This document shows positions 4,892 through 27,825 of a DNA stretch of 64,000 nt, in pieces (the first letter of the stretch is position 1; each line of letters begins with the position of its first letter). Position numbers and translations under genes: made by a program. The stretch lies in the NCBI GenBank assembly GCA_963718235.1, contig CAVQYR010000001.1, forward strand, positions 352,001 through 416,000. The letters run 5' to 3'. Source of the DNA: an uncultured Actinomycetota bacterium (GTDB taxonomy: Bacteria; Actinomycetota; Actinomycetes; JAHEKZ01). The notes beneath the pieces were generated by a model. The model searched no databases. It had not been told where the DNA came from and worked only from the letters and a program-made list of their open reading frames with translations.

Positions 4892-6550
4892 TCAGAATCC
4901 CCAGGGGATGCCCAGCAGGTACCAGGCAAGGAAGAACGCCGTCCACGCGATCGACATCAGCACGAAGTAGGGGAGCATCAGCGCGATGACGGTGCCGATC
5001 CCCGAGCGCTTGTCGTAGCGCGCAGCGAACACCACGATCAGCGGGAAGTACGCCATGATCGGGGTCACGATGTTGACCGGCGAGTCACCAACCCGGTAGG
5101 CGGCGAGCACCGCCTCCGGCTCGACCCCGAGTCGCAGGAAGAGCGGGATGAAGATCGGCGCCAGCAAGGCCCACTTCGCGATCGCCTGGGGGATCAAGAT
5201 GCCTACGACCAGCGTGATGAGGATCGCGAGGAGCAGCAGCCAGCCGGAGCCGATGTCGAGGCCTTCGATGAGGTCCCCGAGCTTGACGGCCGCCACCTGC
5301 GGCATGTTCGAGTAGTTGAAGTAGGCGATGAACTGCGCGATCAGCAGGAAGAGCAGCAGCAGGCCAGCCAGCCCTGCCCAGGACTTGGTGATGGCGTCGA
5401 TGATGTCGCCCTTGCCTCGCAGCGTCCCCGCGCCGCGCGCGAAGCCGACTCCAGCGGCGAAGAAGAGCACCGAGATCGTGACGATGAGCCCGTCCATGAA
5501 GGGCGAGGTGCCAATGATGCTGCCCGTCTCAGGGTCACGCAGTGGTGCGTTCGGAAGCACCGTGAGCAGCGTGATGCCGAGCGTGGCGGCGAGGAACCAG
5601 ATGCCGGACATCCGCAGCCCGCGACGCTCCGCCTGCTCATCGATCTCCGGCGCCTCGTCAGCGGACTGGATCTGGGGGCTGTCGGCATCGGGGGCCACCG
5701 AAGGGTCGTAGGCGCCCAGCCGGCGCTCGACGAGCCGGGAAGTCGTGATCCCGAGGAGGATGGTGAGCAGGACGGTGGAACCGATCCCGAACCAGAAGTT
5801 GGCCGTCAGGTCGATCGACTGGCTGGGGTCGACCAAGGCGATCGACTCGTTCGTGATCTCGGTCAGCACTGCGTCCGTGGGCGTGATCAGCAGGTTGACG
5901 CCGAAGCCGCCGGCGACCCCGGCGAAGGCGGCCGCCATGCCGGCGAGCGGGTGCCTGCCGACGCTCTTGAAGGCAACCGCCCCGAGTGGAATGAGTACGA
6001 GGTAACCGGCGTCCGACGCGATGCTCGAGATGATCCCCAGGAAGACGATGATGTAGGTGAGCGCTGCAGGAGAGGACGCATCCACCAGCCTCCGAATGAG
6101 GGCCGCGATGAGTCCGGACCGTTCGGCGACGCCGACCCCGATCATGACGATCAGGATGATGCCCATCGCGGTGAAACCCATGAAGTTGGGCACGAACGAG
6201 GTGAACAGGTACCGGACACCATCGGCCGTCAGCAGGCCTTCGATCTGGACGGTCTTCTCGACGACCTCGTAGTCGTTGGCGTCCGGCGGTTCGGACGGCA
6301 TGGTCTCGGCCGGGAGCGTCGAGCCCCCGACGTACTCCGCCTCGACCCCCTGAGGTGGCGGCTGGACCACCTCGTAGGTGGCGGAGACGCCAACCCAGGC
6401 CAGCACCTGCGACAGCAAGATCACGCCGATGCAGAGGGCGAGGAACATGATGGCCGGGTGCGGCACCTTGTTGCCGACCCGCTCGATCAGGTCGAGGGTG
6501 CGGGCGACGACCCCAGGCTTCTCGTCGGCAACGGCGGTCGCGGCGCTCAC
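4892..6550 (-). CDS. AbgT-family transporter
   Basis: LDLIERVGNKVPHPA, GRHPLAG and AAYRVGDSPVN...TP motifs; multi-pass membrane protein. Confidence 0.9.
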   Translation of the reverse strand: MSAATAVADEKPGVVARTLDLIERVGNKVPHPAIMFLALCIGVILLSQVLAWVGVSATYEVVQPPPQGVEAEYVGGSTLPAETMPSEPPDANDYEVVEKTVQIEGLLTADGVRYLFTSFVPNFMGFTAMGIILIVMIGVGVAERSGLIAALIRRLVDASSPAALTYIIVFLGIISSIASDAGYLVLIPLGAVAFKSVGRHPLAGMAAAFAGVAGGFGVNLLITPTDAVLTEITNESIALVDPSQSIDLTANFWFGIGSTVLLTILLGITTSRLVERRLGAYDPSVAPDADSPQIQSADEAPEIDEQAERRGLRMSGIWFLAATLGITLLTVLPNAPLRDPETGSIIGTSPFMDGLIVTISVLFFAAGVGFARGAGTLRGKGDIIDAITKSWAGLAGLLLLFLLIAQFIAYFNYSNMPQVAAVKLGDLIEGLDIGSGWLLLLAILITLVVGILIPQAIAKWALLAPIFIPLFLRLGVEPEAVLAAYRVGDSPVNIVTPIMAYFPLIVVFAARYDKRSGIGTVIALMLPYFVLMSIAWTAFFLAWYLLGIPWGF

Positions 6551-7908
6551 GAGGTCGCCCCGAGCCGGGCGAACAGATCGGCGATCGCCACGGTCGTCTT
6601 CTCGAACTCGTCCAGCAGCACTCGCTCATTGGGCCCGTGGATGTTGGCGTAGCCGTCGGTCGTCCCACCGAGCACGATCTGCGCGCCCGGCACGGCCTCG
6701 GCGAGCGAGCTGACCAGCGGGATCGACCCTCCGGCTCCAGCCATGGCAGTCTCGCCACCCCACGCCGATGCCCAGGCGGCCGACGCGGCGCCGACGGCAG
6801 CGCTGTCAGTTTGGGCGGCGAAGCCGTGGCCGGTCTCCAGCGCCTCGACCGTGAGCCGCAACCCGAAGGGCATGGCGCGGCGAAGGTGCTCGACCACGGC
6901 GGCCTGAGCCTCCTTCGGATCCTGCTCGGGGTGGACTCGGACGTTCAGCTTCGCCCGCGCGTACGGCGAGACCGCGTTGAGGGAGTTGTCGACAGAGGGA
7001 ACGTCCACGCCGATCACAGTGATCGCCGGCCCGCTCCACACGCGGGAGCCGAGCGAGCCGGTGCCCATCAGCGGCGCGCCGTCGACGACCTCTGCGAGCT
7101 CGCGGAACTCCGCCTCGTCCGGGCCGCCGCCCGTCCACTCGTTCCGCCGCAGCCCGGCGACGGCGACGTCGCCGTTGTCGTCGTGCAGTGAGGTGAGGGC
7201 ACGCATGAGGGCGAGCATCGCGTCGGGTGCGGCACCGCCGTACATTCCGCTGTGCTTGGCGGACGCCAGCGTGCGGACCTCGACGACGACGTTGGCCATG
7301 CCGCGCAGTGCCACGGTCAGAGTCGGCGACCCCGGCCTGACGTTGCCGAGGTCGGCGATCAGCATCACGTCGGAGGTGAACCGGTCGGGGTCCTGCTGGG
7401 GGTAGGTGGTGAAGGCACCGCCACCGACCTCCTCCTGGCCCTCGACGACCACCTTCACACCCACCGGGGGGCGTCCGCCCCAGGCACGCAGCGCCCCGAC
7501 GATCGCCATGATGTTCGACTTGGTGTCGGCCGCGCCGCGACCGTGGATGGCGCCGTCCCGCTCGGTCGGCTCGAACGGGGGTGTCTCCCAGAGCGACTCG
7601 TCGCCGGCGGGGACGACGTCGTAGTGGCTGTAGAGCAGCACCGTGGGGGCGTCGTCGGGGGCTGGGATCTCGCCGAAGACCACGGGGGCGGTGTCCGGCA
7701 GCTCGATTTGCTCGACCCGCTCACACCCGGCTTCAAGGAGCAGTTGGGTGACGAGTTGCTCGGCGTCGGCCAGTGCCGCGTGTGTGGATCTGGGGTACCC
7801 CGGTGACGAGACTGACGGGATCGCGATCAGCTCACACAACTGCGAGGTCAGCTGGGGCATGAGGGCGCGGACCGCGTTCGCCAGCTGCTCCGTGCTCTTC
7901 TCGGCCAT
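6547..7908 (-). CDS. M20-family peptidase/dipeptidase
   Basis: LLYSHYDVVP, GRGAADTK, EGQEEVG and HGPNE motifs; overlaps the AbgT start by 4 bp. Confidence 0.9.
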   Translation of the reverse strand: MAEKSTEQLANAVRALMPQLTSQLCELIAIPSVSSPGYPRSTHAALADAEQLVTQLLLEAGCERVEQIELPDTAPVVFGEIPAPDDAPTVLLYSHYDVVPAGDESLWETPPFEPTERDGAIHGRGAADTKSNIMAIVGALRAWGGRPPVGVKVVVEGQEEVGGGAFTTYPQQDPDRFTSDVMLIADLGNVRPGSPTLTVALRGMANVVVEVRTLASAKHSGMYGGAAPDAMLALMRALTSLHDDNGDVAVAGLRRNEWTGGGPDEAEFRELAEVVDGAPLMGTGSLGSRVWSGPAITVIGVDVPSVDNSLNAVSPYARAKLNVRVHPEQDPKEAQAAVVEHLRRAMPFGLRLTVEALETGHGFAAQTDSAAVGAASAAWASAWGGETAMAGAGGSIPLVSSLAEAVPGAQIVLGGTTDGYANIHGPNERVLLDEFEKTTVAIADLFARLGATS

Positions 7909-17185: not shown

Positions 17186-18175
17186 CTACAACGGTGGGTA
17201 CTGTCTGCCAGTCGGCTCGTCGCGCTCGTAGACCTGCGAGGGCGGGCCCACGATGAGCGGGTCGGGGGTGCTGACGATGTCGAAGTCCTTGTCGCGGTAG
17301 TCGAACAAGGACAGCACCCACCGCATCGCCTCGAGCCGTCCCCGCTTCTTGTCATTGCTGCGAACGACGGTCCAAGGCGCCCAGTCGGTGTTCGTGTAGT
17401 AGAACATCGCCTCCTTGGCGTCGGAGTAGGCGTCCCACTTGTCAAGGGAGGCGAGGTCTGTGGGGCTGAGCTTCCACTGCCGCACCGGATCTATTCGTCG
17501 GATCGTGAACCGAGTGATCTGCTCCTTGCGGCTGACCGAGAACCAGAGCTTCACGATGGTCGTCCCCGAGCGGACGAGCATGCGTTCGAACTCAGGGACC
17601 TGGCGCAGGAATTCCCAGTACTCCTCGTCTGAGCAGAATCCCATCACTCGCTCGACGACGGCGCGGTTGTACCACGACCGGTCGAACAGCACCATCTCTC
17701 CAGCGGCCGGCAAGTGTTGGACGTAGCGCTGGAAGTACCACTGAGCCCGCTCGCGCTCGGTCGGCTTCAACAGCGCGACCACGTTGGCGCCGCGGGGGTT
17801 GAGGTGTTCCATGAATCGCTTGATGGTTCCGCCCTTGCCGGCCGCATCGCGCCCCTCGAAGAGGATCAGCACCCGCTGACCGGTCTTCCTCACCCAGGTC
17901 TGAAGCTTGAGCAGCTCGATCTGCAACAACCGCTTGTCGACCTCGTACTGCCAACGACGCATCCGGACGTCGTAGGGGTATCCCTCGCGCCACGTGTCCA
18001 CTGGCGTTCCGCCCGGCCCGAGCAGCACTGGGTCGTCGATCTCGTCCCAGGTTCCTTCGACGGCAAGTCCACGGTCCTGCAGCTCCTCGTCGGACAGCTC
18101 CTTAAGCGACGTGATGATGTCGGCCAGATCGACGACGGCTTCGATGTCGACCTCGTGTATGCGCGCGTCTGACAT
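17186..18175 (-). CDS. ppk2: Polyphosphate kinase 2
   Basis: FEGRDAAGKGG Walker A, FDRSWYNR and WKLSPTD. Confidence 0.95.
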   Translation of the reverse strand: MSDARIHEVDIEAVVDLADIITSLKELSDEELQDRGLAVEGTWDEIDDPVLLGPGGTPVDTWREGYPYDVRMRRWQYEVDKRLLQIELLKLQTWVRKTGQRVLILFEGRDAAGKGGTIKRFMEHLNPRGANVVALLKPTERERAQWYFQRYVQHLPAAGEMVLFDRSWYNRAVVERVMGFCSDEEYWEFLRQVPEFERMLVRSGTTIVKLWFSVSRKEQITRFTIRRIDPVRQWKLSPTDLASLDKWDAYSDAKEAMFYYTNTDWAPWTVVRSNDKKRGRLEAMRWVLSLFDYRDKDFDIVSTPDPLIVGPPSQVYERDEPTGRQYPPL

Positions 18176-18382
18176 GTCGCCTCCTGGCAACAAGCATGCA
18201 CCTCGACGGCTGGGCCGATCCGGACGAGCCCAAAGCGTCGCTGTCCGTTCACTCTCGTCCCTGGACGATGACTCCGTCGCATCAGAAGGAGCCCGTCGTG
18301 GTGCAGGCACGGCGGCGGTCCCCCGGGGTGCGGAGGTGACGGCACTCGGGCGAACGGTGTCGACCATCCCAGCTCAGGTCCC

Positions 18383-18473: not shown

Positions 18474-19058
18474 GTGCCTGATCCCTACGAAGGCGCACAT
18501 GGGTTCGTCTTCCTGCACGACGACGACATGAGGGCACCAGCAGAGGTGATCGGCGAGCTGCGCCAGAACCTCAGAACTCCGGACGACCCCGACCGGCCAG
18601 TATTCTTTGCCGCGACCTTCCAAGGTGACTTCGCGGGGTTTGCTCACTTCGCTGCCGACGACCTCGAAGGTCTGGCGGACCTCACCGGATCGCTCCTGTT
18701 CGACGCGGGTATCCACTCGGACTACGCGGTGGAGGGTGTGTACTACAAGAACGCACGGTCGGTACCCATGGCCCCGAAGCGCAAGAGCCCTCGCTTCTGC
18801 GCGATCTGCCGAGTTCGCACGAGCGAGACACCCGCGGTCGTCCTCGACGCGATCGCCCGGGAGTTCGATGAGAGTGAGCCGTTCGTCGGAGGGTCACGGG
18901 TGATCGGGACCTTCCAGCTGCTCATCGAGCTGGGCAGTGACGACGAACCGAGTCTCGAGGTTGCGATCGAACGGCTGCTCGGTGTCTCGGGGGTGACCAC
19001 CGCCCAGGTCGGAACGACCGACACCGGACGCAGAGAAGACGAAGGGCGCAGTGCCTGA
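18474..19058 (+). CDS. Hypothetical protein with two Lrp/AsnC ligand-binding-like domains
   Basis: GAGGAGG SD before GTG. Two similar units (FAATFQGDFAGFAHFAADDLEGL and GSRVIGTFQLLIELGSDDEPSL..LLGVSGV). No HTH. Overlaps the cyclase start. Confidence 0.6.
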   Translation: MPDPYEGAHGFVFLHDDDMRAPAEVIGELRQNLRTPDDPDRPVFFAATFQGDFAGFAHFAADDLEGLADLTGSLLFDAGIHSDYAVEGVYYKNARSVPMAPKRKSPRFCAICRVRTSETPAVVLDAIAREFDESEPFVGGSRVIGTFQLLIELGSDDEPSLEVAIERLLGVSGVTTAQVGTTDTGRREDEGRSA

Positions 19059-22000
19059 GACACAGGCGGAACGAAAGCTCGCCACCGTCCTGTTCGTCGA
19101 CCTGACCGGCTTCACGGCCCTGGCGGCGTCGTTGGATCCCGAGGACGTCTTCTCCCTCATCAGACCGACCATGCTGGACCTCAAGCAGATCGCCGAGGCG
19201 CACGGGGCAACCGTCCCCGAGATCCAGGGTGACGGCTTTATGGCCCTGTTCGGTGTGCCCACCACCCACGAGGACGACGCGGAGCGGGCAGTGCGCGCGG
19301 CGCTGGCCTGCCGCGACCGCATCCGGGTGTTGAACGAGGGCCGCTCCGGGCTCACGATCCCCGAGACGCACTCGGGCGTGAACTCAGGTGAGGTGATGGT
19401 TGGCTCGTCCACGACGGACTTCGGCCTGACCGTGATCGGCGACGTGGTCAACACCGCATCGCGGCTGGCCGATCTCGCGCCCGCGGGAACAGTGATCGTC
19501 GAGGAGGGGACCTGGCAGCGGACCAAGCACGCCATCGGGTACGGGCCACGGCGTACCTTCCGGGCCAAGGGCAAGGCAGAGCCGGTGGCCGCGTTCGAGG
19601 CGCGGGCTCCGCGGACGGCGATGCCGGTCGGTCGGCGGACGCACCCAGGATCGGACTTCGTGGACCGGGTGGCCGAGCGCGAGGAGCTGGCGCAGGAGCT
19701 TCGCACGGTGAGCCGCGAGGGACGGCCGCGGGTCGTCATCGTGGCCGCCGAGCCCGGGGCGGGGAAGACGAGACTCGCCTCGGAGTTCACCCGCCGAAAC
19801 CCCGACCTTCTCGTTCTGGCCGGTCGAGCCACCGCCTACGGGCAGAGCACGCCCGTCTCGCCGCTCGGCGCCGCGGTGGCGGAGATCGTCGGGGTCCCGC
19901 CCGGAACGTCGGCGAAGGCAGGGCTGCGCCGCATCCGTGCCCTCGCCGACCGGATCGCGAGCGGCGGCGAGCGTCGTTCCCTGGTCCGAGGCATGTCCCT
20001 GCTGCTGGGGATCGGGATCGGGGACGAGGACGCAGCCCGCTCGCGGGGCACCGAGGAGGCCATCGCGGCCGCCCGAACCGTGCTCGAGGCGCTCGCCCGC
20101 GAGCGACCGATCGTCGTCCTGCTCGACGACCTGCAGTGGGCCGACCCGGCCGTGGTGGAGGCACTCCGCAGTGTCGGGGACCAGCCGTGGGTCGGTCCGA
20201 TCCTGTTCCTGGGCCTCACCCGTCCGGAATCGCTCCCCAGCCTGACGAACGTTCGAAGGATCGAGCTCGGGGCCATCCCCGGCCCGTTCATGGACGAGCT
20301 CGCCTCCCTCACCCTCGGCCAGGGGTCGGTCACTCCGGAGCTCACCGCCGTCATCTCTCGTGCGGGCGGCAACCCGCTGTTCCTCGAGGAGAGCATCAGC
20401 ATGCTGATGGAGTCGGGCGCGCTGGCCCTGACCGGCTCGGAGTGGGTCGTCGTCGATCCGGTTCAGCTGAGCCGGGTTCCGACGACTGTTCGTGCCGTCG
20501 CCGCCGCTCGACTGGACGGGTTGCCTGCCGACGAGAAGCGGTTGCTCCAGTGCGCTGCGGTCTCAGGCGAGATCACCTGGGACAGACTCCTCGACCGGCT
20601 GGCGCCGGAGATCGACGTGGGCGCGGCTCTGCGACGCCTCGTCGACCGAGACCTGCTGCGTCGACGCCGCGGTTCGCACGTGAGGGGGGCGACCGAGCTC
20701 GTCTTCAAGCATGCGCTGATTCGCGATGTCTCCTACAGCTCGCTGCCCCGTGAGGAACGCGTTCACCTGCACCTGGACGTCGCCGAATGGCTCGTCCAGG
20801 GCGCCCGGCCGTCGCGGGAGCCGGTCGACCAGCTTGCCCAGCACTACTGGCAGGCCTGGAGCCTGGCGACGGCGTCGACGGTCTCTGTTGCACCTGCTGG
20901 CCTGGCTCGGTCGGCGTCGCTGTTCGTCGGGCGCTGGGCCGACGAGACGATGCGCTACCAAGCCCTGGCGGCCGAGTCGCTGTACTCCCGCGCGATCGCC
21001 GTGGATCGGGCCGGCGGGGACGAAGTCGAGCCGGAGCTGTGCACCCGGCATGCGATCGGGCACGCCGAGTGTCTGATCGAGCTGGGCCGCCACGCGGAGG
21101 CCAAGGTCGCCGCCGTCCGGGCGCTCGAGCTCGCCGGAACGCTGGGCGACGAGCGTCTGGAGGCCCGAGCCCTCGTCGCCCTGGGCCGGGTGGAGTCCGA
21201 CGTGGGCGACGATGCCGAAGCTCGCGTGCTGCTCGAGCGGGCACTGGTCGCCTTCCAGACGGTCGGCGACGTGTCCGGGGTGGCGTGGGCCACCCACAGG
21301 CTGTCAGAGCTGTCCGCCCGGACTGACTACGCCGAGAGTCTGGAGTACCTGCGGGTGGCTCACCGGCTGTTCGTCGAGTCCGGCGACCACTGGGGGCGGG
21401 TGATCTCAGCCCAGGACCTGGCCTACATGTTGAGCATGGTGGGAGGCGCGGAGTTCCGCCGCTGGTACCGCGAGTGTGAGCGGCTGGCTGAGGGTGAAGG
21501 CGACCTGCGGTCGCGGGCTGCGTTGCTGCGGACGCTCGGTTACCACCAGTACTACTGCGGAGAGCACGAGGCGGCCATCGCGACCATGCACGAGGCCGGA
21601 CCGGTCGCCCGAGCCGCCGGCGACCGCTATGCGCTGGCGGATGCCTTGCTGATCGAGGCCCTGGCTGCGGCGGCCGTGAGTCCGCCCAAGGAAGCATGGG
21701 TCGCTGCGGAGGCGGTCGTGACGTTCGGAGGTGACATCCAGTCGGACCGGTTGAAGGGCCTCGGACTGGCTGCTGAGGGCCGGGCGGCCTTGCGCGGTGG
21801 TGACCCGCGCCGCGCGACCCGCTGCCTCACTGCCTGCCGACGCACTCTCGGTCGGCTGGGCGCCCGCGCTGAGCTGGCCGAGGCGGACCTGATCACAGCC
21901 GAGGTGATGCTCGACCGAGGGGCGTGGGGGAGGGTCCGCGAGCCCGCGATGAACGGCGCCCGAGAAGCCGTGGCGAACTCGATGACCCTCGTCGAGCCCA

Positions 22001-22485
22001 TCGGGCCGCTCCTGGTCGGCCGGGCGGCGCTCGGCGCCGGTGACCTCGCGCAGGCGAGCACGGTGCTGACCCAGGCAGTCGCGCTGGCCCGCGGCTCCGG
22101 GGCGAGTGGAACCCTCGCCGTGGCGCGTGCCGCGCGAGACCAGGCACTGCTCCTGTCGGCCCGAAAACCTCGTCCCCGTCGACTTCGAGGGCCAGGAGTC
22201 GTGGCCCAGGCGATAGAGGAGGAGAACCACGGTCTGGTGTGCCTGTGGGAGCAGCGGTACGAGGACGCTGCCGTGTCGTTGCAGCGCGCCGTTGACCACT
22301 GGGGGCTCCTCGGCTCGACGGTGTGGCTGGCCCGCGCCCTGGTGATGCTCGGCGACGCGCGTCGACGGGCAGGCGATCGATCGGGGTCGGCGTCCGCGCG
22401 ATCACGCGCCCGACGGGTGCTCGCGCGGCTGGACACACCCGATGCCGAGCGTCAGGACGTGATGGATGTCCTGAGCCGTTGGTGA
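19051..22485 (+). CDS. Class III nucleotide cyclase fused to a STAND/AAA ATPase and TPR-like repeats
   Basis: Cyclase motifs FVDLTGFT, EIQGDG and VIGDVVNTASRL. Walker A AEPGAGKT, Walker B LLDDLQWAD, GGNPLFLEE. Long helical repeat C-terminus. Confidence 0.93.
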   Translation: MPETQAERKLATVLFVDLTGFTALAASLDPEDVFSLIRPTMLDLKQIAEAHGATVPEIQGDGFMALFGVPTTHEDDAERAVRAALACRDRIRVLNEGRSGLTIPETHSGVNSGEVMVGSSTTDFGLTVIGDVVNTASRLADLAPAGTVIVEEGTWQRTKHAIGYGPRRTFRAKGKAEPVAAFEARAPRTAMPVGRRTHPGSDFVDRVAEREELAQELRTVSREGRPRVVIVAAEPGAGKTRLASEFTRRNPDLLVLAGRATAYGQSTPVSPLGAAVAEIVGVPPGTSAKAGLRRIRALADRIASGGERRSLVRGMSLLLGIGIGDEDAARSRGTEEAIAAARTVLEALARERPIVVLLDDLQWADPAVVEALRSVGDQPWVGPILFLGLTRPESLPSLTNVRRIELGAIPGPFMDELASLTLGQGSVTPELTAVISRAGGNPLFLEESISMLMESGALALTGSEWVVVDPVQLSRVPTTVRAVAAARLDGLPADEKRLLQCAAVSGEITWDRLLDRLAPEIDVGAALRRLVDRDLLRRRRGSHVRGATELVFKHALIRDVSYSSLPREERVHLHLDVAEWLVQGARPSREPVDQLAQHYWQAWSLATASTVSVAPAGLARSASLFVGRWADETMRYQALAAESLYSRAIAVDRAGGDEVEPELCTRHAIGHAECLIELGRHAEAKVAAVRALELAGTLGDERLEARALVALGRVESDVGDDAEARVLLERALVAFQTVGDVSGVAWATHRLSELSARTDYAESLEYLRVAHRLFVESGDHWGRVISAQDLAYMLSMVGGAEFRRWYRECERLAEGEGDLRSRAALLRTLGYHQYYCGEHEAAIATMHEAGPVARAAGDRYALADALLIEALAAAAVSPPKEAWVAAEAVVTFGGDIQSDRLKGLGLAAEGRAALRGGDPRRATRCLTACRRTLGRLGARAELAEADLITAEVMLDRGAWGRVREPAMNGAREAVANSMTLVEPIGPLLVGRAALGAGDLAQASTVLTQAVALARGSGASGTLAVARAARDQALLLSARKPRPRRLRGPGVVAQAIEEENHGLVCLWEQRYEDAAVSLQRAVDHWGLLGSTVWLARALVMLGDARRRAGDRSGSASARSRARRVLARLDTPDAERQDVMDVLSRW

Positions 22486-22544
22486 CACCGACTGGGTGAG
22501 CGCGCAGACCTCGCTGCGGTCGCGGTCCCTCGGTGAAGCAACGG

Positions 22545-22700
22545 GATCGGCCCGGGCGACCCGGACGGCGAAACACCCAGGACGGGCGTTGTGCATGTGC
22601 ACGAAGTCGACCCGCGTGTCCAAGAACAGCCGGTCGAGCTCTGCTTCGAGCTTCGTGCCCTCGACGACCTCGGCGTCGGCCATCATGGCCGCGGCGTCTG
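22545..22700 (-). pseudogene. C-terminal remnant of a DUF1203-like protein
   Basis: MMADAEVVEG..LFLDTRVDFVHMHNARPGCFAVRVAR; N-terminal half missing. Confidence 0.6.
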
Positions 22701-22829
22701 GGCGTCAATGCCACTCTCGCGGATCGCAGGCCGCGAGACCGGCGAGTTTCGGACCGGGCATGGGCGTGCCGACCGCTGGGGACGCAGCGCGGCGGGTGAG
22801 GTCAGGGCGGTCGGACTCCCAGCGGCACG

Positions 22830-22896
22830 TGTCGCACAGCTGACAGCCCCCCTGTCGCCCAGACGACAGACAGACCCTGGACAGGCGGTGCACACT
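22830..22896 (+). promoter_or_regulatory. Tandem CRP-like boxes and a -10-like element upstream of the peptide gene
   Basis: TGTCG-N6-TGACA (22830-22845) and the perfect palindrome TGTCG-N6-CGACA (22853-22868). CACACT at 22891-22896 is 30.5 bp from the centre of the second box. Confidence 0.65.
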
Positions 22897-22951
22897 GAGT
22901 ACGTCAGAACGGCCCGGTCCCCCCGGGACCACTCCAACGGAGGAGCGCACC

Positions 22952-23104
22952 ATGTCAGACACCACCCAGCCCGACGCCACCCAGCCCACACCCGAAGACG
23001 ACACCGAAGGCTCGATCCTGCGGCACCCGAAGGCACAGGTCGAGGACGAGACGGCCGTCGAGGACGACACCCAAGGTCACATCGCGAGGGGCCACGGCAA
23101 GTAG
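22952..23104 (+). CDS. 50-aa acidic repeat peptide (putative precursor peptide); not in the ORF track
   Basis: GGAGGA SD at 22939-22944. Translation MSDTTQPDATQPTPEDDTEGSILRHPKAQVEDETAVEDDTQGHIARGHGK*, with GC-rich third positions and a strong hairpin downstream. Confidence 0.8.
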   Translation: MSDTTQPDATQPTPEDDTEGSILRHPKAQVEDETAVEDDTQGHIARGHGK

Positions 23105-23191
23105 ATCGTCGAGGACACCGACGCGAAGGCGTCCACGTACTCAGACCTGCGGGGACTGCTGCCGGGTTCGGAAATCCGGCGACGAGTGATC

Positions 23192-23239
23192 AACACCGAG
23201 CCTGGCCCGGATCACACGATCCGGGCCAGGCTCGGTGTT
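23192..23239 (+). terminator. Perfect 22-bp stem-loop (terminator or transcript stabiliser)
   Basis: AACACCGAGCCTGGCCCGGATC-ACAC-GATCCGGGCCAGGCTCGGTGTT. Confidence 0.8.
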
Positions 23240-23384
23240 CGCATGACGTCGACGGCCATGAGTGGGCGCCCGGGAGGTACGGGTGGAGCAGTGCACGGCG
23301 CACCCATCGACCCCTGGCCCACCCTTGACCCGACGCGGGGCCCGCACCCATGATCCGCTGCAGGTTCCGACGAGGGAGCGAGCG

Positions 23385-25058
23385 GTGAGCGATCGATCGT
23401 CCGGAGGGTTTCGCTCAGCCCTGGCCCGGGCGGACTTCCGCAACCTGCTGTCCGGACTCGTCGTCTCGGGCACCGGCGACTGGATGTACAACGTCGCCCT
23501 GTTCGTGTACGTGCTGGACCGGACCGGTTCGCCGGGCTGGGTGGCCGCTGTCAGTGCGGTCAAGCTGCTGCCGGTCCTCCTCTTCAGCAGCGTCGGCGGT
23601 GTGGTCGCCGATCGGTACGACCGCCGGCGAGTGATGCTGGTCTCCGACCTGATCCGGGCGTTCCTCATGGTGGCGCTTGCGCTGATGGTCGGCGTCGACG
23701 GACCCCTCGCGTTCCTGCTGTTGATCGTGGCGGGGAGCTCGCTGGTCGGTACTCCCTACTACCCCGCAGTTGGTGCGCTGACCCCGAGCATGGTCGACGA
23801 GGACGACCTCGCAGCCGCAAACGCACTCAACGGCGCCGTGGACAACATCACGATCACGCTCGGGCCGGCTCTGGGCTCGGTCCTGCTCCTGCTTGGCTCA
23901 CCCTCCACGGCGATCGCCCTGAACGCAGTCACGTTTCTGGTGTCGGCGGCGTTCGTCTGGCGCATCCGGGGTCCGGCTCCCGGCGATCCGGACGCGAGCT
24001 CGCAGACGCTTCGGAGCCGCCTGGCGGCCGGGCTTGGAGCGATGACGCGTTCGCCGGACATCATGCTGCTGGTGCTCGTCTCGCTGGGGTTCACGCTGAC
24101 CTTCGGTATGGAGATCGTGCTGTTCCCGCTCATTGCCGATGAGCTGCTCGGAACCGGTGCGCAAGGCCTGGGGTGGCTGCTCGGGGCGTCCGGGCTGGGT
24201 GGGGTGCTCGGTACCTACGTTGCTGGGCGTCTGGCCGGCCGGCCACGGACCGCGATCATCCTGGTCGGGTCGGCGCTCCTGACGGCGTTGCCCCTGCTGG
24301 CGCTCACCGTGATCAGCCAGCCCGTGGTCGCGTACGCGGTGCTCCTGGCCGAGGGAGTGGGGTTCGTCGTCGGCGACGTCATCGCTGTGACGACGATCCA
24401 GCGGGTTGCTCCCGGCGAGGTGGTGGGTCGCGTGCTCGGCCTGCTCGGCACCGTGTTCGTCGGGGGGATCCTCGTCGGCAACCTGGTCGCGGGTGTGGCC
24501 GTCGACGCGGTCGGACTGGAAGGGGCCATGGTCCTCGGCTCGGCGTGCCTGATCGTGAGCGGACTGGCCGCGCTGCCTCGCGCCCGTCGGCTGGACCGTC
24601 AGTCGGCCGAGAGCGCGGCTGCGGTCGCGGACCGCGTCGCGTTGCTCCGACGACTGCGCATCTTCGACGGAGCCTCCCAGGCGACTCTGGAGTCGGTAGC
24701 CGCCGCTGCGACGGACCTTCACGTCACGCCCGGCACCGTGGTTGTCCGCGAGGGCGACACCGGGGACGCCTTCTACGTGGTGAGGACCGGCAGCTTCATG
24801 GTCAGTCCGGTCGGCCGGACGCTCGGAGCGGACGACTACTTCGGTGAGATCGGAATCCTCGAACGGGTGCCCCGCACCGCCACCGTCACCTCCACGACCG
24901 ACGCCGACCTGTACCGGATCGAGGCCGATGCGTTCGTCGCGGCGATCAACGAGGCCCCGGCCGGCATGCTTCGCCTGGCGGACACCCTGGCCGGGCGACT
25001 GGCCCGCACCCACCCGTCCCGCCGCGCCACGTTCAGCGGGCGTGAGCCCAGCGAGTAG
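23385..25058 (+). CDS. MFS transporter with a C-terminal cyclic-nucleotide-binding domain
   Basis: MFS motif GGVVADRYDRRRV and about 12 TM segments. C-terminal VVREGDTGDAFYVV...FGEIGILERVPRTATV. Confidence 0.9.
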   Translation: MSDRSSGGFRSALARADFRNLLSGLVVSGTGDWMYNVALFVYVLDRTGSPGWVAAVSAVKLLPVLLFSSVGGVVADRYDRRRVMLVSDLIRAFLMVALALMVGVDGPLAFLLLIVAGSSLVGTPYYPAVGALTPSMVDEDDLAAANALNGAVDNITITLGPALGSVLLLLGSPSTAIALNAVTFLVSAAFVWRIRGPAPGDPDASSQTLRSRLAAGLGAMTRSPDIMLLVLVSLGFTLTFGMEIVLFPLIADELLGTGAQGLGWLLGASGLGGVLGTYVAGRLAGRPRTAIILVGSALLTALPLLALTVISQPVVAYAVLLAEGVGFVVGDVIAVTTIQRVAPGEVVGRVLGLLGTVFVGGILVGNLVAGVAVDAVGLEGAMVLGSACLIVSGLAALPRARRLDRQSAESAAAVADRVALLRRLRIFDGASQATLESVAAAATDLHVTPGTVVVREGDTGDAFYVVRTGSFMVSPVGRTLGADDYFGEIGILERVPRTATVTSTTDADLYRIEADAFVAAINEAPAGMLRLADTLAGRLARTHPSRRATFSGREPSE

Positions 25059-25132
25059 CGCGAGACGGGTTCCCGACGGCGACCCGGCCGGATCCCATGC
25101 GTCCGGCCCCCGCCACCGCTAGCATCCGATCA

Positions 25133-25870
25133 ATGGACAGCAACGAGCTCGTCGCGCGGCTCGCGGACCTTGCCGGCGAGCTCGGGCCGGGGCTGGAACC
25201 CCCTGGGGCAACCGACCAGCTGCAGGACATCGTCGAGACCGTTCGGGACCTTCTGGGCTCTGCGGCGTGCTCGGTCGCCGCAGTCGACCGTGACGAGGGA
25301 ACCCTTGTGTTCGTTGCCGCCACCGGGGAGGGCGCGGACCGCGTGGTCGGCGCCCAGATGCCGCTGTCGAAGGGGATCGCGGGCTGGGTCGTCGCCTCGG
25401 GGCAGTCGCTCACTGTCTCGGACACGGCACAGGACTCCCGCTTCGCCGCCGACGTCGCCACCTCGACGGGGTACGTACCCACCTCGTTGCTGGCTGTGCC
25501 ACTCCACAGCGACGACGACGTGCTCGGCATTCTGGAGGTCCTCGACGCCACAGTCGAGCCGGACGCCGGCACCTCACGGCTGCTGGAGCTGTTGGCCCAG
25601 CAGGCCACGCTGACCCTGCAGACCCGCCGAGTCTTCGCCGACCTGGGCTTCGTCCTGCTGCAGGCCCTGAAGGGTGCGGATCAAGGTGGCGACCTGAGTG
25701 ATGCTCTCGACGCGGTGGTGACCGGCAGCAGTGGGTCGGTCAGGGAGCTGGCGAGGCTTGCCACGCTGTTCCAGTCCCTGGGTCGACTCGGCCCTGACGA
25801 ACGGTCTGCGGCGACGCGCATGCTGACGACGTTCGTCTCGTACGCGCAACAGGCGGCACCACAGCCGTGA
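25133..25870 (+). CDS. Stand-alone GAF-domain protein
   Basis: GIAGWVVASGQSL..D...DSRF and SLLAVPL...LGILEVLD. TAGCAT lies 7 nt before the ATG (leaderless-type start). Confidence 0.88.
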   Translation: MDSNELVARLADLAGELGPGLEPPGATDQLQDIVETVRDLLGSAACSVAAVDRDEGTLVFVAATGEGADRVVGAQMPLSKGIAGWVVASGQSLTVSDTAQDSRFAADVATSTGYVPTSLLAVPLHSDDDVLGILEVLDATVEPDAGTSRLLELLAQQATLTLQTRRVFADLGFVLLQALKGADQGGDLSDALDAVVTGSSGSVRELARLATLFQSLGRLGPDERSAATRMLTTFVSYAQQAAPQP

Positions 25871-26685
25871 AGCCCGCGTACACCTGGCAGTTCGACCCCC
25901 GCCACCTCGAGTCGGTGCCCGTCGACCTCCCGGTCGCGATCACCCCCGAGTGGGCGTGGGAGGGCAGCACTGGGGCCGGGGTCAAGGTCGCCATCGTCGA
26001 CAGCGGCGTCGACCCTGGGCACCGATGGGTCGGCTCGGTCGCCGGCGGAGTGGCCGTGGAGTACGACCCCGAGCTGGTTGCGCGGGTCCGGTTCGACGAG
26101 GGGCCCCACGAGGACCTGTTCGGGCACGGCACAGCATGCGCCGCGATCGTGCGCAAGACCGCTCCTGATGCGGAGATGTACAGCATCCGTGTGCTCGGCT
26201 CACGTCTGAGCGGCAAGGGCTTCGTCTTTGCGGCCGGTCTTCAGTGGGCCATCGAGCACGGTATGCAGGTCGTCAACCTGAGCCTGTCGACGCCGAGCCG
26301 GGCTCACTTCGCCGCGTTCCACCGTCTCGTCGACGAGGCGGCCCGTCGGCGGATCATGGTGGTGTCCGCCATGAACAACTGGCCCGGTCGCTCATACCCG
26401 TCGGAGTTCTCCGGGGTGTTCAGCGTCGCTGCCCACGAGGGCACCGACCCATACGCGTTCGACGTCAATCCGCGCCCTCCGGCCGAGTGGGGGGCTCCAG
26501 GGATCGACCTCGAGGTCGCGAGCCTGGGCGGGTCGACGATTCGGGCCACCGGCAACAGCTTCGCATCTCCGCACATGGCGGGACTGATCGCGAAGATCCT
26601 GGGCAAGCACCCCGACCTCACGGTCTTCCAGATGAAGGCGATCCTGCAGTCCCTGGCCCGTAACGCAGTCTCGGCGTCTGCCTAG
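25867..26685 (+). CDS. Minimal S8 (subtilisin-like) serine peptidase
   Basis: Catalytic triad motifs IVDSG, GHGTACA and GNSFASPH. No signal peptide or long propeptide. GTGA overlap with the GAF gene. Confidence 0.92.
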   Translation: MKPAYTWQFDPRHLESVPVDLPVAITPEWAWEGSTGAGVKVAIVDSGVDPGHRWVGSVAGGVAVEYDPELVARVRFDEGPHEDLFGHGTACAAIVRKTAPDAEMYSIRVLGSRLSGKGFVFAAGLQWAIEHGMQVVNLSLSTPSRAHFAAFHRLVDEAARRRIMVVSAMNNWPGRSYPSEFSGVFSVAAHEGTDPYAFDVNPRPPAEWGAPGIDLEVASLGGSTIRATGNSFASPHMAGLIAKILGKHPDLTVFQMKAILQSLARNAVSASA

Positions 26686-27371
26686 CCCCCAGCTCGGCGC
26701 TCCAACTGCGCGAAGTTCGTCACGGTCACATGTCGACCGTCGATGGTGATCCAGCCGCGCTCGGCAAAGCGGTGCAGCGCCTGGTTCAGGCTCTGCCGCG
26801 ACACCCCCACCATCTCGGCGAGCTCAGTCTGCGACAGAGGCAGGTCGACGGCGACGGGAGCTCCCTGGCCAGCGACCCGCTCTCGATCAGCCAGGCCGAC
26901 CAGCAGCTTCGCGACTCGTGCCTGCACGTCGAGGAACACCAGATCGCCGGTCTGCTCGGTGAGCCGACGGACCAGCGTGCCCAGAGACCGCAGCAGTCCA
27001 TCGACCAGTGCCGGCTCGTTGTGAAGTGCGTCGAGCAGGTCCTGGCGCCGGAGGGTGAACACGGTGGTGGGCTCCACCGCGACGGCCGACGTCGAGCGAG
27101 ACCCGCCGTCGACCAGGGACAGCTCGCCGAACGTCTCAGTCGGGCCGACCGTGGCCAACAGCATCTCGCGTCCGTCCGGTGACGCGATGGTGATCTTGAC
27201 CAGCCCCGAGACGACCAGGTACAGCGTGTCGCCCGGGTCCCCCTCGTGGAACAGGGTGTGACCGGCGGCGAACGACCGGCGAACGGCGCCGTCGTTGAGC
27301 CGCCGCAGGAACTTGGTGTCCAGACCGGCGAACAGCTCGGTCCCCGACAGTGGGACTTCGTTGGGTTCCAT
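26682..27371 (-). CDS. Crp/Fnr-family transcriptional regulator
   Basis: FHEGDPGD, FGELSLVDGGSRS and HTH LSQTELAEMVGVSRQSLNQAL. Confidence 0.93.
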   Translation of the reverse strand: MEPNEVPLSGTELFAGLDTKFLRRLNDGAVRRSFAAGHTLFHEGDPGDTLYLVVSGLVKITIASPDGREMLLATVGPTETFGELSLVDGGSRSTSAVAVEPTTVFTLRRQDLLDALHNEPALVDGLLRSLGTLVRRLTEQTGDLVFLDVQARVAKLLVGLADRERVAGQGAPVAVDLPLSQTELAEMVGVSRQSLNQALHRFAERGWITIDGRHVTVTNFAQLERRAGG

Positions 27372-27402: not shown

Positions 27403-27825
27403 CTAGCCGAGCTTCGCTTCAGAGGCGCGGATTGTCTCGCAGAGTCCGACCAGGATCTTGCGCGTCAGAGCCGGGTTGTCGTCGAGCAACGGCTGGAACT
27501 TCCAGGCGGGAAGGGACAGCGTGCGCATGGCTGACTCGGTCTTCACGGTCGCGCTTCGTGGTTTGCCGTCGATGACCGAGATCTCCCCGAAGTAGTCACC
27601 GGGCGCGAGAGTCCGGATCGTGCGAGCGCCTTGGCTGACTGTCGCCGTTCCGTCGAGGATCAGGTGGAAACCGACCGAACCCCCGCCCTCCTCGACGACC
27701 TCGTGGCCGGCTTGGTGCTCGACGGTGCGGGAGGCGCTCACGACCGCATTGAGCTCCTTGTCCGAGAGCCCTTCGAACAACGGCACCGACTTCAGCCGCT
27801 GGAGCAGGTCCTTGTCCGCCGCCAT
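27403..27825 (-). CDS. Stand-alone cyclic-nucleotide-binding protein
   Basis: LKSVPLFEGLS...GDYFGEISVIDGKPRSATV; GGAGG SD before the ATG. Confidence 0.9.
   Translation of the reverse strand: MAADKDLLQRLKSVPLFEGLSDKELNAVVSASRTVEHQAGHEVVEEGGGSVGFHLILDGTATVSQGARTIRTLAPGDYFGEISVIDGKPRSATVKTESAMRTLSLPAWKFQPLLDDNPALTRKILVGLCETIRASEAKLG

Follow-up and report, generated by a model that had tools for sequence, protein, structure and literature searches.

The small gene at positions 22952-23104 of a 64,000-nucleotide stretch from an uncultured Actinomycetota bacterium (assembly GCA_963718235.1, contig CAVQYR010000001.1, positions 352,001 to 416,000 of the forward strand; hereafter the window) encodes a peptide of 50 residues with two repeated acidic units. 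Its sequence marks it as a real gene, with predicted translation, and as a member of a conserved protein family that is unnamed and previously undescribed. Genes of this family are obligately linked to a cassette encoding a GAF-domain protein, a subtilisin-like protease of family S8 and a regulator of the Crp family, and the operator pair found upstream of them is conserved. We propose, at a probability of roughly one half, that the open reading frame (ORF) encodes a disordered multi-unit precursor, induced by a cyclic nucleoside monophosphate (cNMP) through Crp and cut by the S8 protease at each DD[VT]EGH word.

The repeat-peptide gene and its family

The peptide locus comprises the following features.

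22952..23104, + strand: repeat-peptide gene of 50 amino acids with two DDT[EQ]G[SH] units, ATG to TAG, stop included
22939..22944, + strand: Shine-Dalgarno sequence GGAGGA, 7 nt 5' of the ATG
23105..23131, + strand: degenerate further unit IVEDTDAKA, in frame after the TAG, sharing GTCGAGGAC with unit 2
23192..23239, + strand: perfect hairpin with a 22-bp stem between the peptide and transporter genes, -55.7 kcal/mol

The ORF translates as MSDTTQPDATQPTPEDDTEGSILRHPKAQVEDETAVEDDTQGHIARGHGK, with the units EDDTEG-SILRHPK and EDDTQG-HIARGHGK and a duplicated TQP. The first-pass annotation of this DNA had proposed the 50-residue frame, its two units, the TQP repeat and a strong Shine-Dalgarno sequence, and the DNA reads exactly so. 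The GC content at the three codon positions is 0.69/0.45/0.84. In a sliding window the coding-type frame signal is limited to about 22940-23120, which favours the 50-residue frame over the overlapping ORFs of 245 residues on the + strand and of 117 and 121 residues on the - strand. The genome of origin carries a single copy of the gene.

The downstream hairpin, also announced in that annotation, is real: its z-score is -11.5, and 0 of 200 shuffles equalled it. A scan for consensus terminators reported none around the peptide gene, the hairpin being unlisted because it has no T-tract; it is likely a terminator or attenuator of that kind.

The DNA beyond the TAG had been read as a decayed third unit. 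This holds in so far as it shares the above sequence with unit 2 and a full unit stands at the same position in a related genome, but in the window itself the resemblance is faint. Repeat sequence follows the TAG in frame in three related genomes, namely G007 (L004:1675-1727), G013 (L005, same place) and the window (23102-23131). In G007 the extra unit is complete (APDVEDATEGHAARTF) and is followed by a stop, while in G013 and the window it is degenerate; a profile match in the class-wide search described below runs through a TAG. Either a nonsense mutation recently shortened the array here, or the stop is read through on occasion.

Searched as a single sequence, the window peptide retrieves one close relative, P0002, of 46 residues and 82% identity. 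Against 41 related genomes it retrieves small ORFs of three units each in G007, G013 and G002, with units such as EDDT[EQ]GHVRRPL or DDDVEGHRLRHGG; relatives are matched by the window peptide alone at 1e-5 and 2.9e-5. A profile of five sequences (A1, the window peptide and four relatives) matches 215 proteins of 25-116 residues at E<=0.01 among 2577 candidates, and a full HMMER search with it over 1.84 billion representatives gives 225 matches at E<=1e-3, 14 of them at E<=1e-10. Where these matches are named, they are called 'hypothetical protein', and none carries a precomputed Pfam domain. Pfam and NCBIfam contain no match to the window peptide, and Pfam gives none below E 0.04 for 10 longer family members. 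A literature search, with supplements and subscription journals outside its scope, found the motif, the cassette and the operator nowhere described; the matches to the motif strings included none on bacteria, and the literature on multicore precursors and on peptides synthesized by ribosomes and post-translationally modified (RiPPs) returned only reviews of known classes.

The unit pattern of the family is [DE]-D-D-[VT]-E-G-H-x-x-[RK], with 2-11 units per protein, mostly 3-4, spaced mostly 15-21 residues apart. Among 632 units from 208 proteins, D occupies position -2 in 601 and position -3 in 475, and R or K is found at +5, three residues past the His, in 403; the expression used to extract the units imposed none of these. 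The core DD[VT]EGH is constant across the family and the residues past GH are variable. The chain ends within 8 residues of the last GH in 130 of 200 proteins; 62 of 208 begin with MTE. The arrays expand in tandem. As members we count proteins shorter than about 250 residues with at least two units [DE]-D-D-[VT]-[EQ]-G-[H], 15-25 residues apart, with R or K three residues past the His; the window peptide carries DDTEGS...R and DDTQGH..R, 22 residues apart. The motif lies beyond chance, because the repeat recurs in the 215 proteins, or 225 representatives, in the same gene neighbourhood.

In five loci from long-read metagenome-assembled genomes (L062, L070, L072, L097 and L162) the array continues in a second reading frame. 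These frameshifts may stem from real slippage or from misassembled tandem repeats, and the unit counts at these loci are unreliable.

Conservation lies in the protein, which is kept over Actinomycetota, Chloroflexota and Dormibacterota despite diverged DNA, and the ORFs of G007 and G013 show 16 differences, distributed 5/2/9 by codon position, in 7 synonymous and 7 non-synonymous codons. Of 36 family starts, 31 have a word resembling a Shine-Dalgarno sequence at -18 to -4; for a control window at -200 the count is 11 of 36. A protein atlas places one family member among unnamed clusters of Actinomycetota and Chloroflexota, with 427, 100 and 167 members, and models it as disordered, with a predicted local distance difference test score (pLDDT) of 0.48.

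Linkage of the peptide to GAF, S8 and Crp genes

We approached the gene neighbourhood from both sides. Starting from the peptide, the profile has matches in 18 genomes of an even sample of 401 from the class. One of these, in G131 (E 8.5e-4), shows no motif on inspection and was dropped. In all 17 genomes with true members (17/17), no more than 3 kb separate the peptide ORF from an S8 gene whose product is 47-78% identical to that of the window; this S8 gene adjoins a GAF homologue and usually a Crp homologue, in at least five gene orders and orientations. Two genomes have a second peptide copy, G241 with one on either side of the cassette and G135 with one about 13 kb away. The S8 subfamily occurs in 49 of the 401 genomes, including all 17 with the peptide, and inspection of the other 32 loci revealed motif ORFs missed by the profile search in 10 more, bringing the count to 27 of 49.

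Starting from the protease, an alignment of 13 S8 sequences (A2) yielded 80 loci from GTDB species genomes. The 38 loci whose S8 is at least 39% identical to that of the window come from Actinomycetota, Chloroflexia, Limnocylindrales, Dormibacterota and Acidobacteriota; the 42 others encode ordinary S8 proteases of 26-34% identity (Bacillus, Streptomyces, Bradyrhizobium and others) and serve as controls. All were scored with a hidden Markov model of a 19-residue unit in six frames and by tblastn with the window proteins.

Open frame with at least two units: subfamily 21/38, controls 0/42
Open frame with one unit only: subfamily 6/38, controls 6/42
GAF gene adjacent to S8: subfamily 34/38, controls 1/42
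Crp-like gene: subfamily 26/38, controls 1/42
Major facilitator superfamily (MFS) transporter body: subfamily 21/38, controls 0/42
Cyclase-STAND protein of at least 300 residues: subfamily 9/38, controls 0/42

Single-unit matches are as common in the controls and were not counted. The first-pass annotation had suggested looking for motif-bearing small ORFs near S8, GAF and cyclase genes at homologous loci, and the outcome is clearly positive from either side (21/38 against 0/42, and 17/17 within 3 kb). The tetratricopeptide repeat (TPR) region to which it had pointed belongs to the cyclase-STAND protein, present in only the 9 loci listed. Clustering of the ORFs of 54 cassettes gave no further conserved family beyond S8, GAF, cNMP-domain proteins, cyclase-STAND and the peptides, and a search for divergent repeat ORFs in cassettes without the peptide gave nothing consistent. 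We also tried the transporter as an anchor for the locus and rejected it: in relatives its MFS-cNMP homologues reach only 27-35% identity and are found on other contigs.

In two cassettes of the class sample without a repeat peptide the motif takes another form. The ORFs at L153 (about 5270-5640, +) and L178 (about 7461-7830, -) have the motif once, as an N-terminal DDVEAHGL, and continue into a long hydrophobic protein rich in Ala and Gly; both lie downstream of the TGTCG-N6-CGACA operator that also precedes the peptide gene of the window. This arrangement of leader and cargo suggests that the motif is a cleavage tag.

The motif-less members of the class sample include 12 large genomes (7-10.7 Mb; L151, L156, L159, L161, L165, L168, L169, L170, L172, L175, L177 and L179) in which S8 is 43-47% identical to that of the window and has an adjacent GAF gene; a cyclase-STAND gene lies about 2.2-3.1 kb off, except in L169, where the distance is about 6 kb; no Crp gene, operator or motif peptide was found in these 12. 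In G014, also motif-less, an operator pair lies at the very edge of the contig.

Among close relatives the cassette is unevenly distributed. Both the S8 subfamily and the peptide are missing from the same-genus genome G001, which is 99% complete, and only 5 of 19 same-family genomes have the subfamily. The cassette is thus accessory, and it occurs in other phyla too.

Operator boxes and cassette genes

Two palindromic boxes lie upstream of the peptide gene of the window.

22830..22845, no strand assigned: operator box 1, TGTCGCACAGCTGACA, one mismatch to TGTCG-N6-CGACA
22853..22868, no strand assigned: operator box 2, TGTCGCCCAGACGACA, perfect palindrome, left edge 99 nt before the ATG

They form a pair spaced by 23 bp and are the only matches with at most one mismatch in the window, a raw count that is not above chance. 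The case for an operator comes instead from position and conservation. Of 39 non-redundant regions upstream of peptide genes, 16 contain two boxes at a spacing of exactly 23 bp, against 0 of 42 control loci. Perfect sites number 13 in 34 related loci (463,922 bp), and 12 of them stand upstream of a peptide ORF at a distance of 300 nt or less; across the 42 control loci (530,789 bp) there is neither a perfect site nor a pair. The claim of the first-pass annotation that the gene has its own promoter region gains support from this conserved pair.

The geometry is that of a CRP site, an inverted repeat of 16 bp made of 5-bp half-sites around a 6-bp spacer, with the variant half-site TGTCG and next to a Crp-family gene; the core half-site of CRP is given as TGTGA (TGTGA-N6-TCACA) in PMC1635313. 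Our literature search found nothing on a TGTCG-N6-CGACA operator. From this arrangement, the cassette's own Crp paralogue is presumably the reader of the paired boxes. A perfect box, TGTCGCCCAGCCGACA, also stands at L171:4715-4730, upstream of a second S8 gene with a signal peptide, in a cassette where no repeat peptide was detected; the Crp paralogue may have other targets.

The cassette genes of the window are the following.

19051..22485, + strand: fusion of a class III nucleotide cyclase, an AAA_16 STAND ATPase and TPR (Pfam Guanylate_cyc 2.6e-15, AAA_16 3.3e-17, TPR_12 6.8e-12)
23385..25058, + strand: MFS_3 (EntS-like) transporter with a C-terminal cNMP-binding domain (Pfam MFS_3 2.3e-45, cNMP_binding 1.5e-15)
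25097..25870, + strand: GAF protein, a GAF domain with a C-terminal helical region (Pfam GAF_2 4.6e-16)
25867..26685, + strand: S8 subtilase of 272 amino acids (Pfam Peptidase_S8 3.4e-24)
26682..27371, - strand: Crp/FNR-family regulator, a cNMP-binding domain with a helix-turn-helix (Pfam cNMP_binding 4e-26, HTH_Crp_2 1e-18)
27403..27822, - strand: small stand-alone cNMP-binding protein (Pfam cNMP_binding 5.2e-13)

The window thus has the peptide gene (22952) within a few kilobases of a coupled GAF gene (25097) and leaderless S8 gene (25867) and of a Crp gene (26682). The S8 protein has no signal peptide and no pro-domain, and its catalytic D, H and S are present; D45, H87 and S231 are invariant over 13 homologues. 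By these features it is predicted to be a cytoplasmic, leaderless protease. The stop of the GAF gene overlaps the S8 start (GTGA), a sign of translational coupling. The GAF profile has its best PDB matches in GAF domains that bind cAMP or cGMP, 1ykd (CyaB2; 5.3e-30) and 5w10 (1.3e-26; entry title 'Lcd1 GAF domain in complex with cAMP ligand'), and Foldseek ranks the same two on top for an AlphaFold model of the protein (pLDDT 75). As judged from profile and model, the GAF partner resembles the cAMP/cGMP-binding GAFs.

The cyclase-STAND protein is the likely source of the cNMP signal. The transporter falls below the cut-offs of the NCBIfam models 2A0121 and EntS, and its start is uncertain: we use the GTG at 23385, and the ORF list gives 23262. 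The start of the small cNMP-binding protein is equally uncertain, its ORF extending to 28242 in the list; homologues of 43-60% identity occur in several cassettes. The only sigma-70-like pair of hexamers in 22480-23420, TTGACC and CATGAT separated by 18 nt (23325-23354), lies past the hairpin and before the transporter gene, and the transporter, GAF and S8 genes may for this reason have their own promoter. Upstream of the cyclase gene, a gene for a PPK2 polyphosphate kinase (17186-18367, -; Pfam 8e-100) shows no link to the cassette.

Proposed pathway, alternatives and known systems

The first-pass annotation had seen in the peptide a multi-core precursor with repeated protease-recognition sites. 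The architecture fits this view, with its invariant DD[VT]EGH, its variable tails and the closeness of the chain end to the last GH; cleavage and a mature product are the parts that go beyond it. Binding of Crp to the boxes, cleavage by S8 and its position, gating of S8 by GAF, export and the role of the product are steps that we infer, and they would proceed as follows. Each unit consists of an acidic spacer, the word D-D-[V/T]-E-G-H and a short basic or His-containing tail. A cyclic nucleotide, for example from the neighbouring cyclase-STAND protein, would activate the Crp paralogue of the cassette, which would bind the two TGTCG-N6-CGACA boxes and turn on the monocistronic peptide gene. The leaderless cytoplasmic S8 would then recognise and cut each DD[VT]EGH, working with its translationally coupled cAMP-type GAF partner and probably gated by it. 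The cut would most likely place V/T at P4 and His at P1, an arrangement that would suit a subtilisin cleft and that we offer as a guess. The resulting short peptides would leave through the cNMP-gated MFS exporter where it is present and act outside the cell, and our preferred guess for their role is a lineage-specific signal. A modifying enzyme may be encoded elsewhere, but none is conserved in the cassette, and the product would on this evidence be RiPP-like only loosely, as a proteolytically processed ribosomal peptide.

Several findings weigh against the precursor reading. The first unit of the window peptide has Ser where the family has His, as does that of P0002. No motif ORF lies within about 6 kb of S8 in 22 of the 49 subfamily genomes, so that S8 there has other substrates or the peptides lie elsewhere; in the protease-first set, 11 of 38 subfamily loci have no unit at all and 6 more have just one. 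The exporter occurs in just 21 of these 38 loci, so export is not obligatory. In the S8 alignment no column separates five loci with a GQ motif from 34 with GH, the differences between the two groups being lineage-specific only and not shared by an independent case in Chloroflexia. The tails past GH are only modestly alike within a protein (identity 0.28, against 0.14 between proteins), less than expected of identical repeated cores. Among 20 runs checked for RNA, one RNA library shares 0.09 of the sampled words, and its sole contig (a sediment metatranscriptome, 189 nt, depth 4.5, 3 differences) covers 22760-22945 only; it ends 7 nt before the ATG and spans the operator boxes. This contig could be RNA, DNA carry-over or a related strain, and it speaks neither for expression nor against it. 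Prediction of complexes of the peptide (5 alignment rows) with S8 (13 rows) and with GAF (11 rows) scored 0.01 and 0.00, in a run without controls whose scores likewise count neither way on binding.

The repeat protein could instead act on the GAF-S8 pair as regulatory subunit, pseudo-substrate or inhibitor, occupying the protease or the GAF domain until released by cNMP, while S8 targets other proteins. Its strict linkage is indeed to GAF-S8 and not to the exporter, and the 22 subfamily genomes without a nearby peptide suggest other work for the protease. GAF domains can also hold small disordered inhibitors: judged by entry titles, the fold matches to the GAF model include structures of PDE6 GAF with P-gamma. 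We nevertheless find this explanation unlikely. An array of 2-11 units that expands in tandem is a typical sign of product dosage and would be strange in a stoichiometric regulator. The leader-cargo variants look like cleavage substrates, and the peptide gene is a Crp-controlled output, whereas for an inhibitor co-expression with the enzyme would be more likely.

We regard as quite improbable that the product is an intracellular acidic, His-rich protein for metal binding or stress, co-regulated by cNMP and Crp, with S8 serving only for its turnover. Each unit does combine Asp/Glu clusters with a His, many tails have a second His, most commonly 4 residues past GH (36 of 634 units), and the family is predicted to be disordered. 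The second His is nonetheless found in a minority of units, the cassette has no conserved metal transporter or metalloregulator, and an invariant six-residue word with a Gly and a beta-branched residue resembles a recognition site more than a loose chelating patch.

The presence of a class III cyclase and of cNMP-binding proteins, one of them in the membrane, recalls Pycsar, with matches at the domain level only. In a conflict or defence module of this type, infection or stress would fire the cyclase, and the protease would release cationic peptides or activate a membrane effector. PADLOC reports a weak PycC-type match for the cyclase domain (5.6e-12) and, for the cNMP domain of the transporter, matches to models of Pycsar effectors (2e-10); the fusion of the cyclase to a STAND ATPase and the patchy distribution of the cassette, with a same-genus genome lacking both the S8 subfamily and the peptide, would also suit defence. 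The similarity is generic, however. A Pycsar system consists of a PycC cyclase and, next to it, one effector (PycTM or PycTIR) that bears the cNMP-binding domain. We reject membership in Pycsar: the domain matches are weak, at 43 bits for the cyclase and 38 bits for the cNMP domain, the place of the effector is taken by an EntS-like MFS transporter, and there are six other components. The GAF protein and the peptide are matched by none of the PADLOC models, and S8 is reached only by a generic 'subtilase' model. A Crp with operators on the peptide gene, the GAF-S8 pair and the repeat peptide are no part of Pycsar as defined in PADLOC; to our knowledge, Pycsar has no dedicated Crp regulator whose operators lie on a structural peptide gene. 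Phage or mobile-element genes were not seen in the tblastn and ORF-clustering surveys, neither of which was aimed at them. A defence function is on these grounds highly improbable.

That the frame is a chance, untranslated one in GC-rich intergenic DNA is hardly credible: it has only 50 codons and the RNA-library contig stops before its ATG, but against this stand the coding-type GC by codon position, the Shine-Dalgarno-like words before 31 of 36 family starts, the protein conserved across three phyla while the DNA diverged, and the 5/2/9 differences between G007 and G013.

For the multi-unit precursor that we favour, the cyanobactin system is the closest bacterial analogue. According to PMC4663559, its precursor PatE has 1-4 variable cores with short recognition sequences on either side of each, and the subtilisin-like proteases PatA and PatG do the cutting. 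Both systems combine several units of short conserved recognition sequences and variable parts with S8-family proteases encoded beside the precursor. The cassette differs in being without heterocyclase, macrocyclase insert, prenyltransferase and the DUF domain of PatA/PatG, and the repeat peptide, unlike PatE, has no long leader with an RSI-type element. Its protease is a minimal S8 of 272 residues with a GAF partner, wired to cNMP sensors (Crp, GAF, cNMP-MFS), and its hosts are Actinomycetota, Chloroflexota and Dormibacterota, whereas those of cyanobactins are cyanobacteria. The window S8 gives a weak partial match to the PatA/PatG model TIGR03895 (6.9e-8, 31.7 bits, cut-off 421) and no PatD-type heterocyclase or tailoring enzyme is conserved among the 54 cassettes; we therefore do not count the cassette as a cyanobactin one.

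In enzyme type and cell compartment, the closest match is QhpE/QhpC/QhpF, which matures the gamma-subunit of quinohemoprotein amine dehydrogenase. PMC7876137 describes QhpE as a cytoplasmic subtilisin that takes off a leader peptide ahead of export, and the likeness is one of a small cytoplasmic subtilisin without pro-domain, encoded with its substrate and a dedicated transporter. QhpE (NF049966) is also the best-scoring named NCBIfam family for the window S8 (2.9e-32); the score of 111.8 bits is below the cut-off of 165 and the window S8 is hence not a QhpE, its neighbours being GAF, Crp and MFS genes and not a qhp operon. The cassette has no radical-SAM QhpD, QhpG or dehydrogenase subunits, its presumed substrate is a repeat peptide and not a cross-linked enzyme subunit, and its exporter belongs to the MFS and not to the ABC transporters.

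Eukaryotes have multi-copy propeptides cut by S8 convertases: yeast alpha-factor by Kex2, fungal dikaritins and epichloecyclins by KexB, and the prohormones of animals. These carry short peptides in tandem with conserved spacers, released by subtilisin-family enzymes, in copy numbers that vary between species. The convertases act in the secretory pathway at dibasic sites, whereas the enzyme of the cassette would be cytoplasmic and its site acidic-Gly-His; the likeness is one of logic only, with no homology known beyond the S8 fold.

Altogether, the picture of a multi-unit ribosomal precursor served by an S8 protease in a cytoplasmic, modification-enzyme-free and cNMP-wired cassette is partly supported, by the observed linkage, with processing as the part that we infer. 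A wider picture, which we put forward tentatively and hold to be less probable than the precursor reading itself, is a cytoplasmic pathway in Actinomycetota, Chloroflexota and Dormibacterota akin to that of the prohormone convertases. It would be controlled by cNMP at transcription (Crp), processing (GAF-gated S8) and export (MFS), and one gene would give rise to many lineage-specific peptides that signal between cells.

Gene callers systematically miss, or leave unnamed, this family of more than 200 sequence clusters. Cultured carriers exist, namely Geodermatophilus sp. CPCC 205761 and Phycicoccus flavus CMS6Z-2. If the precursor reading is true, the Crp paralogue would have a new operator specificity, and the compact protease with its six-residue recognition tag could be a possible tool. 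An unannotated ribosomal peptide system would extend across several soil and freshwater phyla, in which peptides would be produced, diced and released in direct link with cAMP/cGMP signalling, and a peptide-signal route would be added in bacteria that are best known for small-molecule signals.

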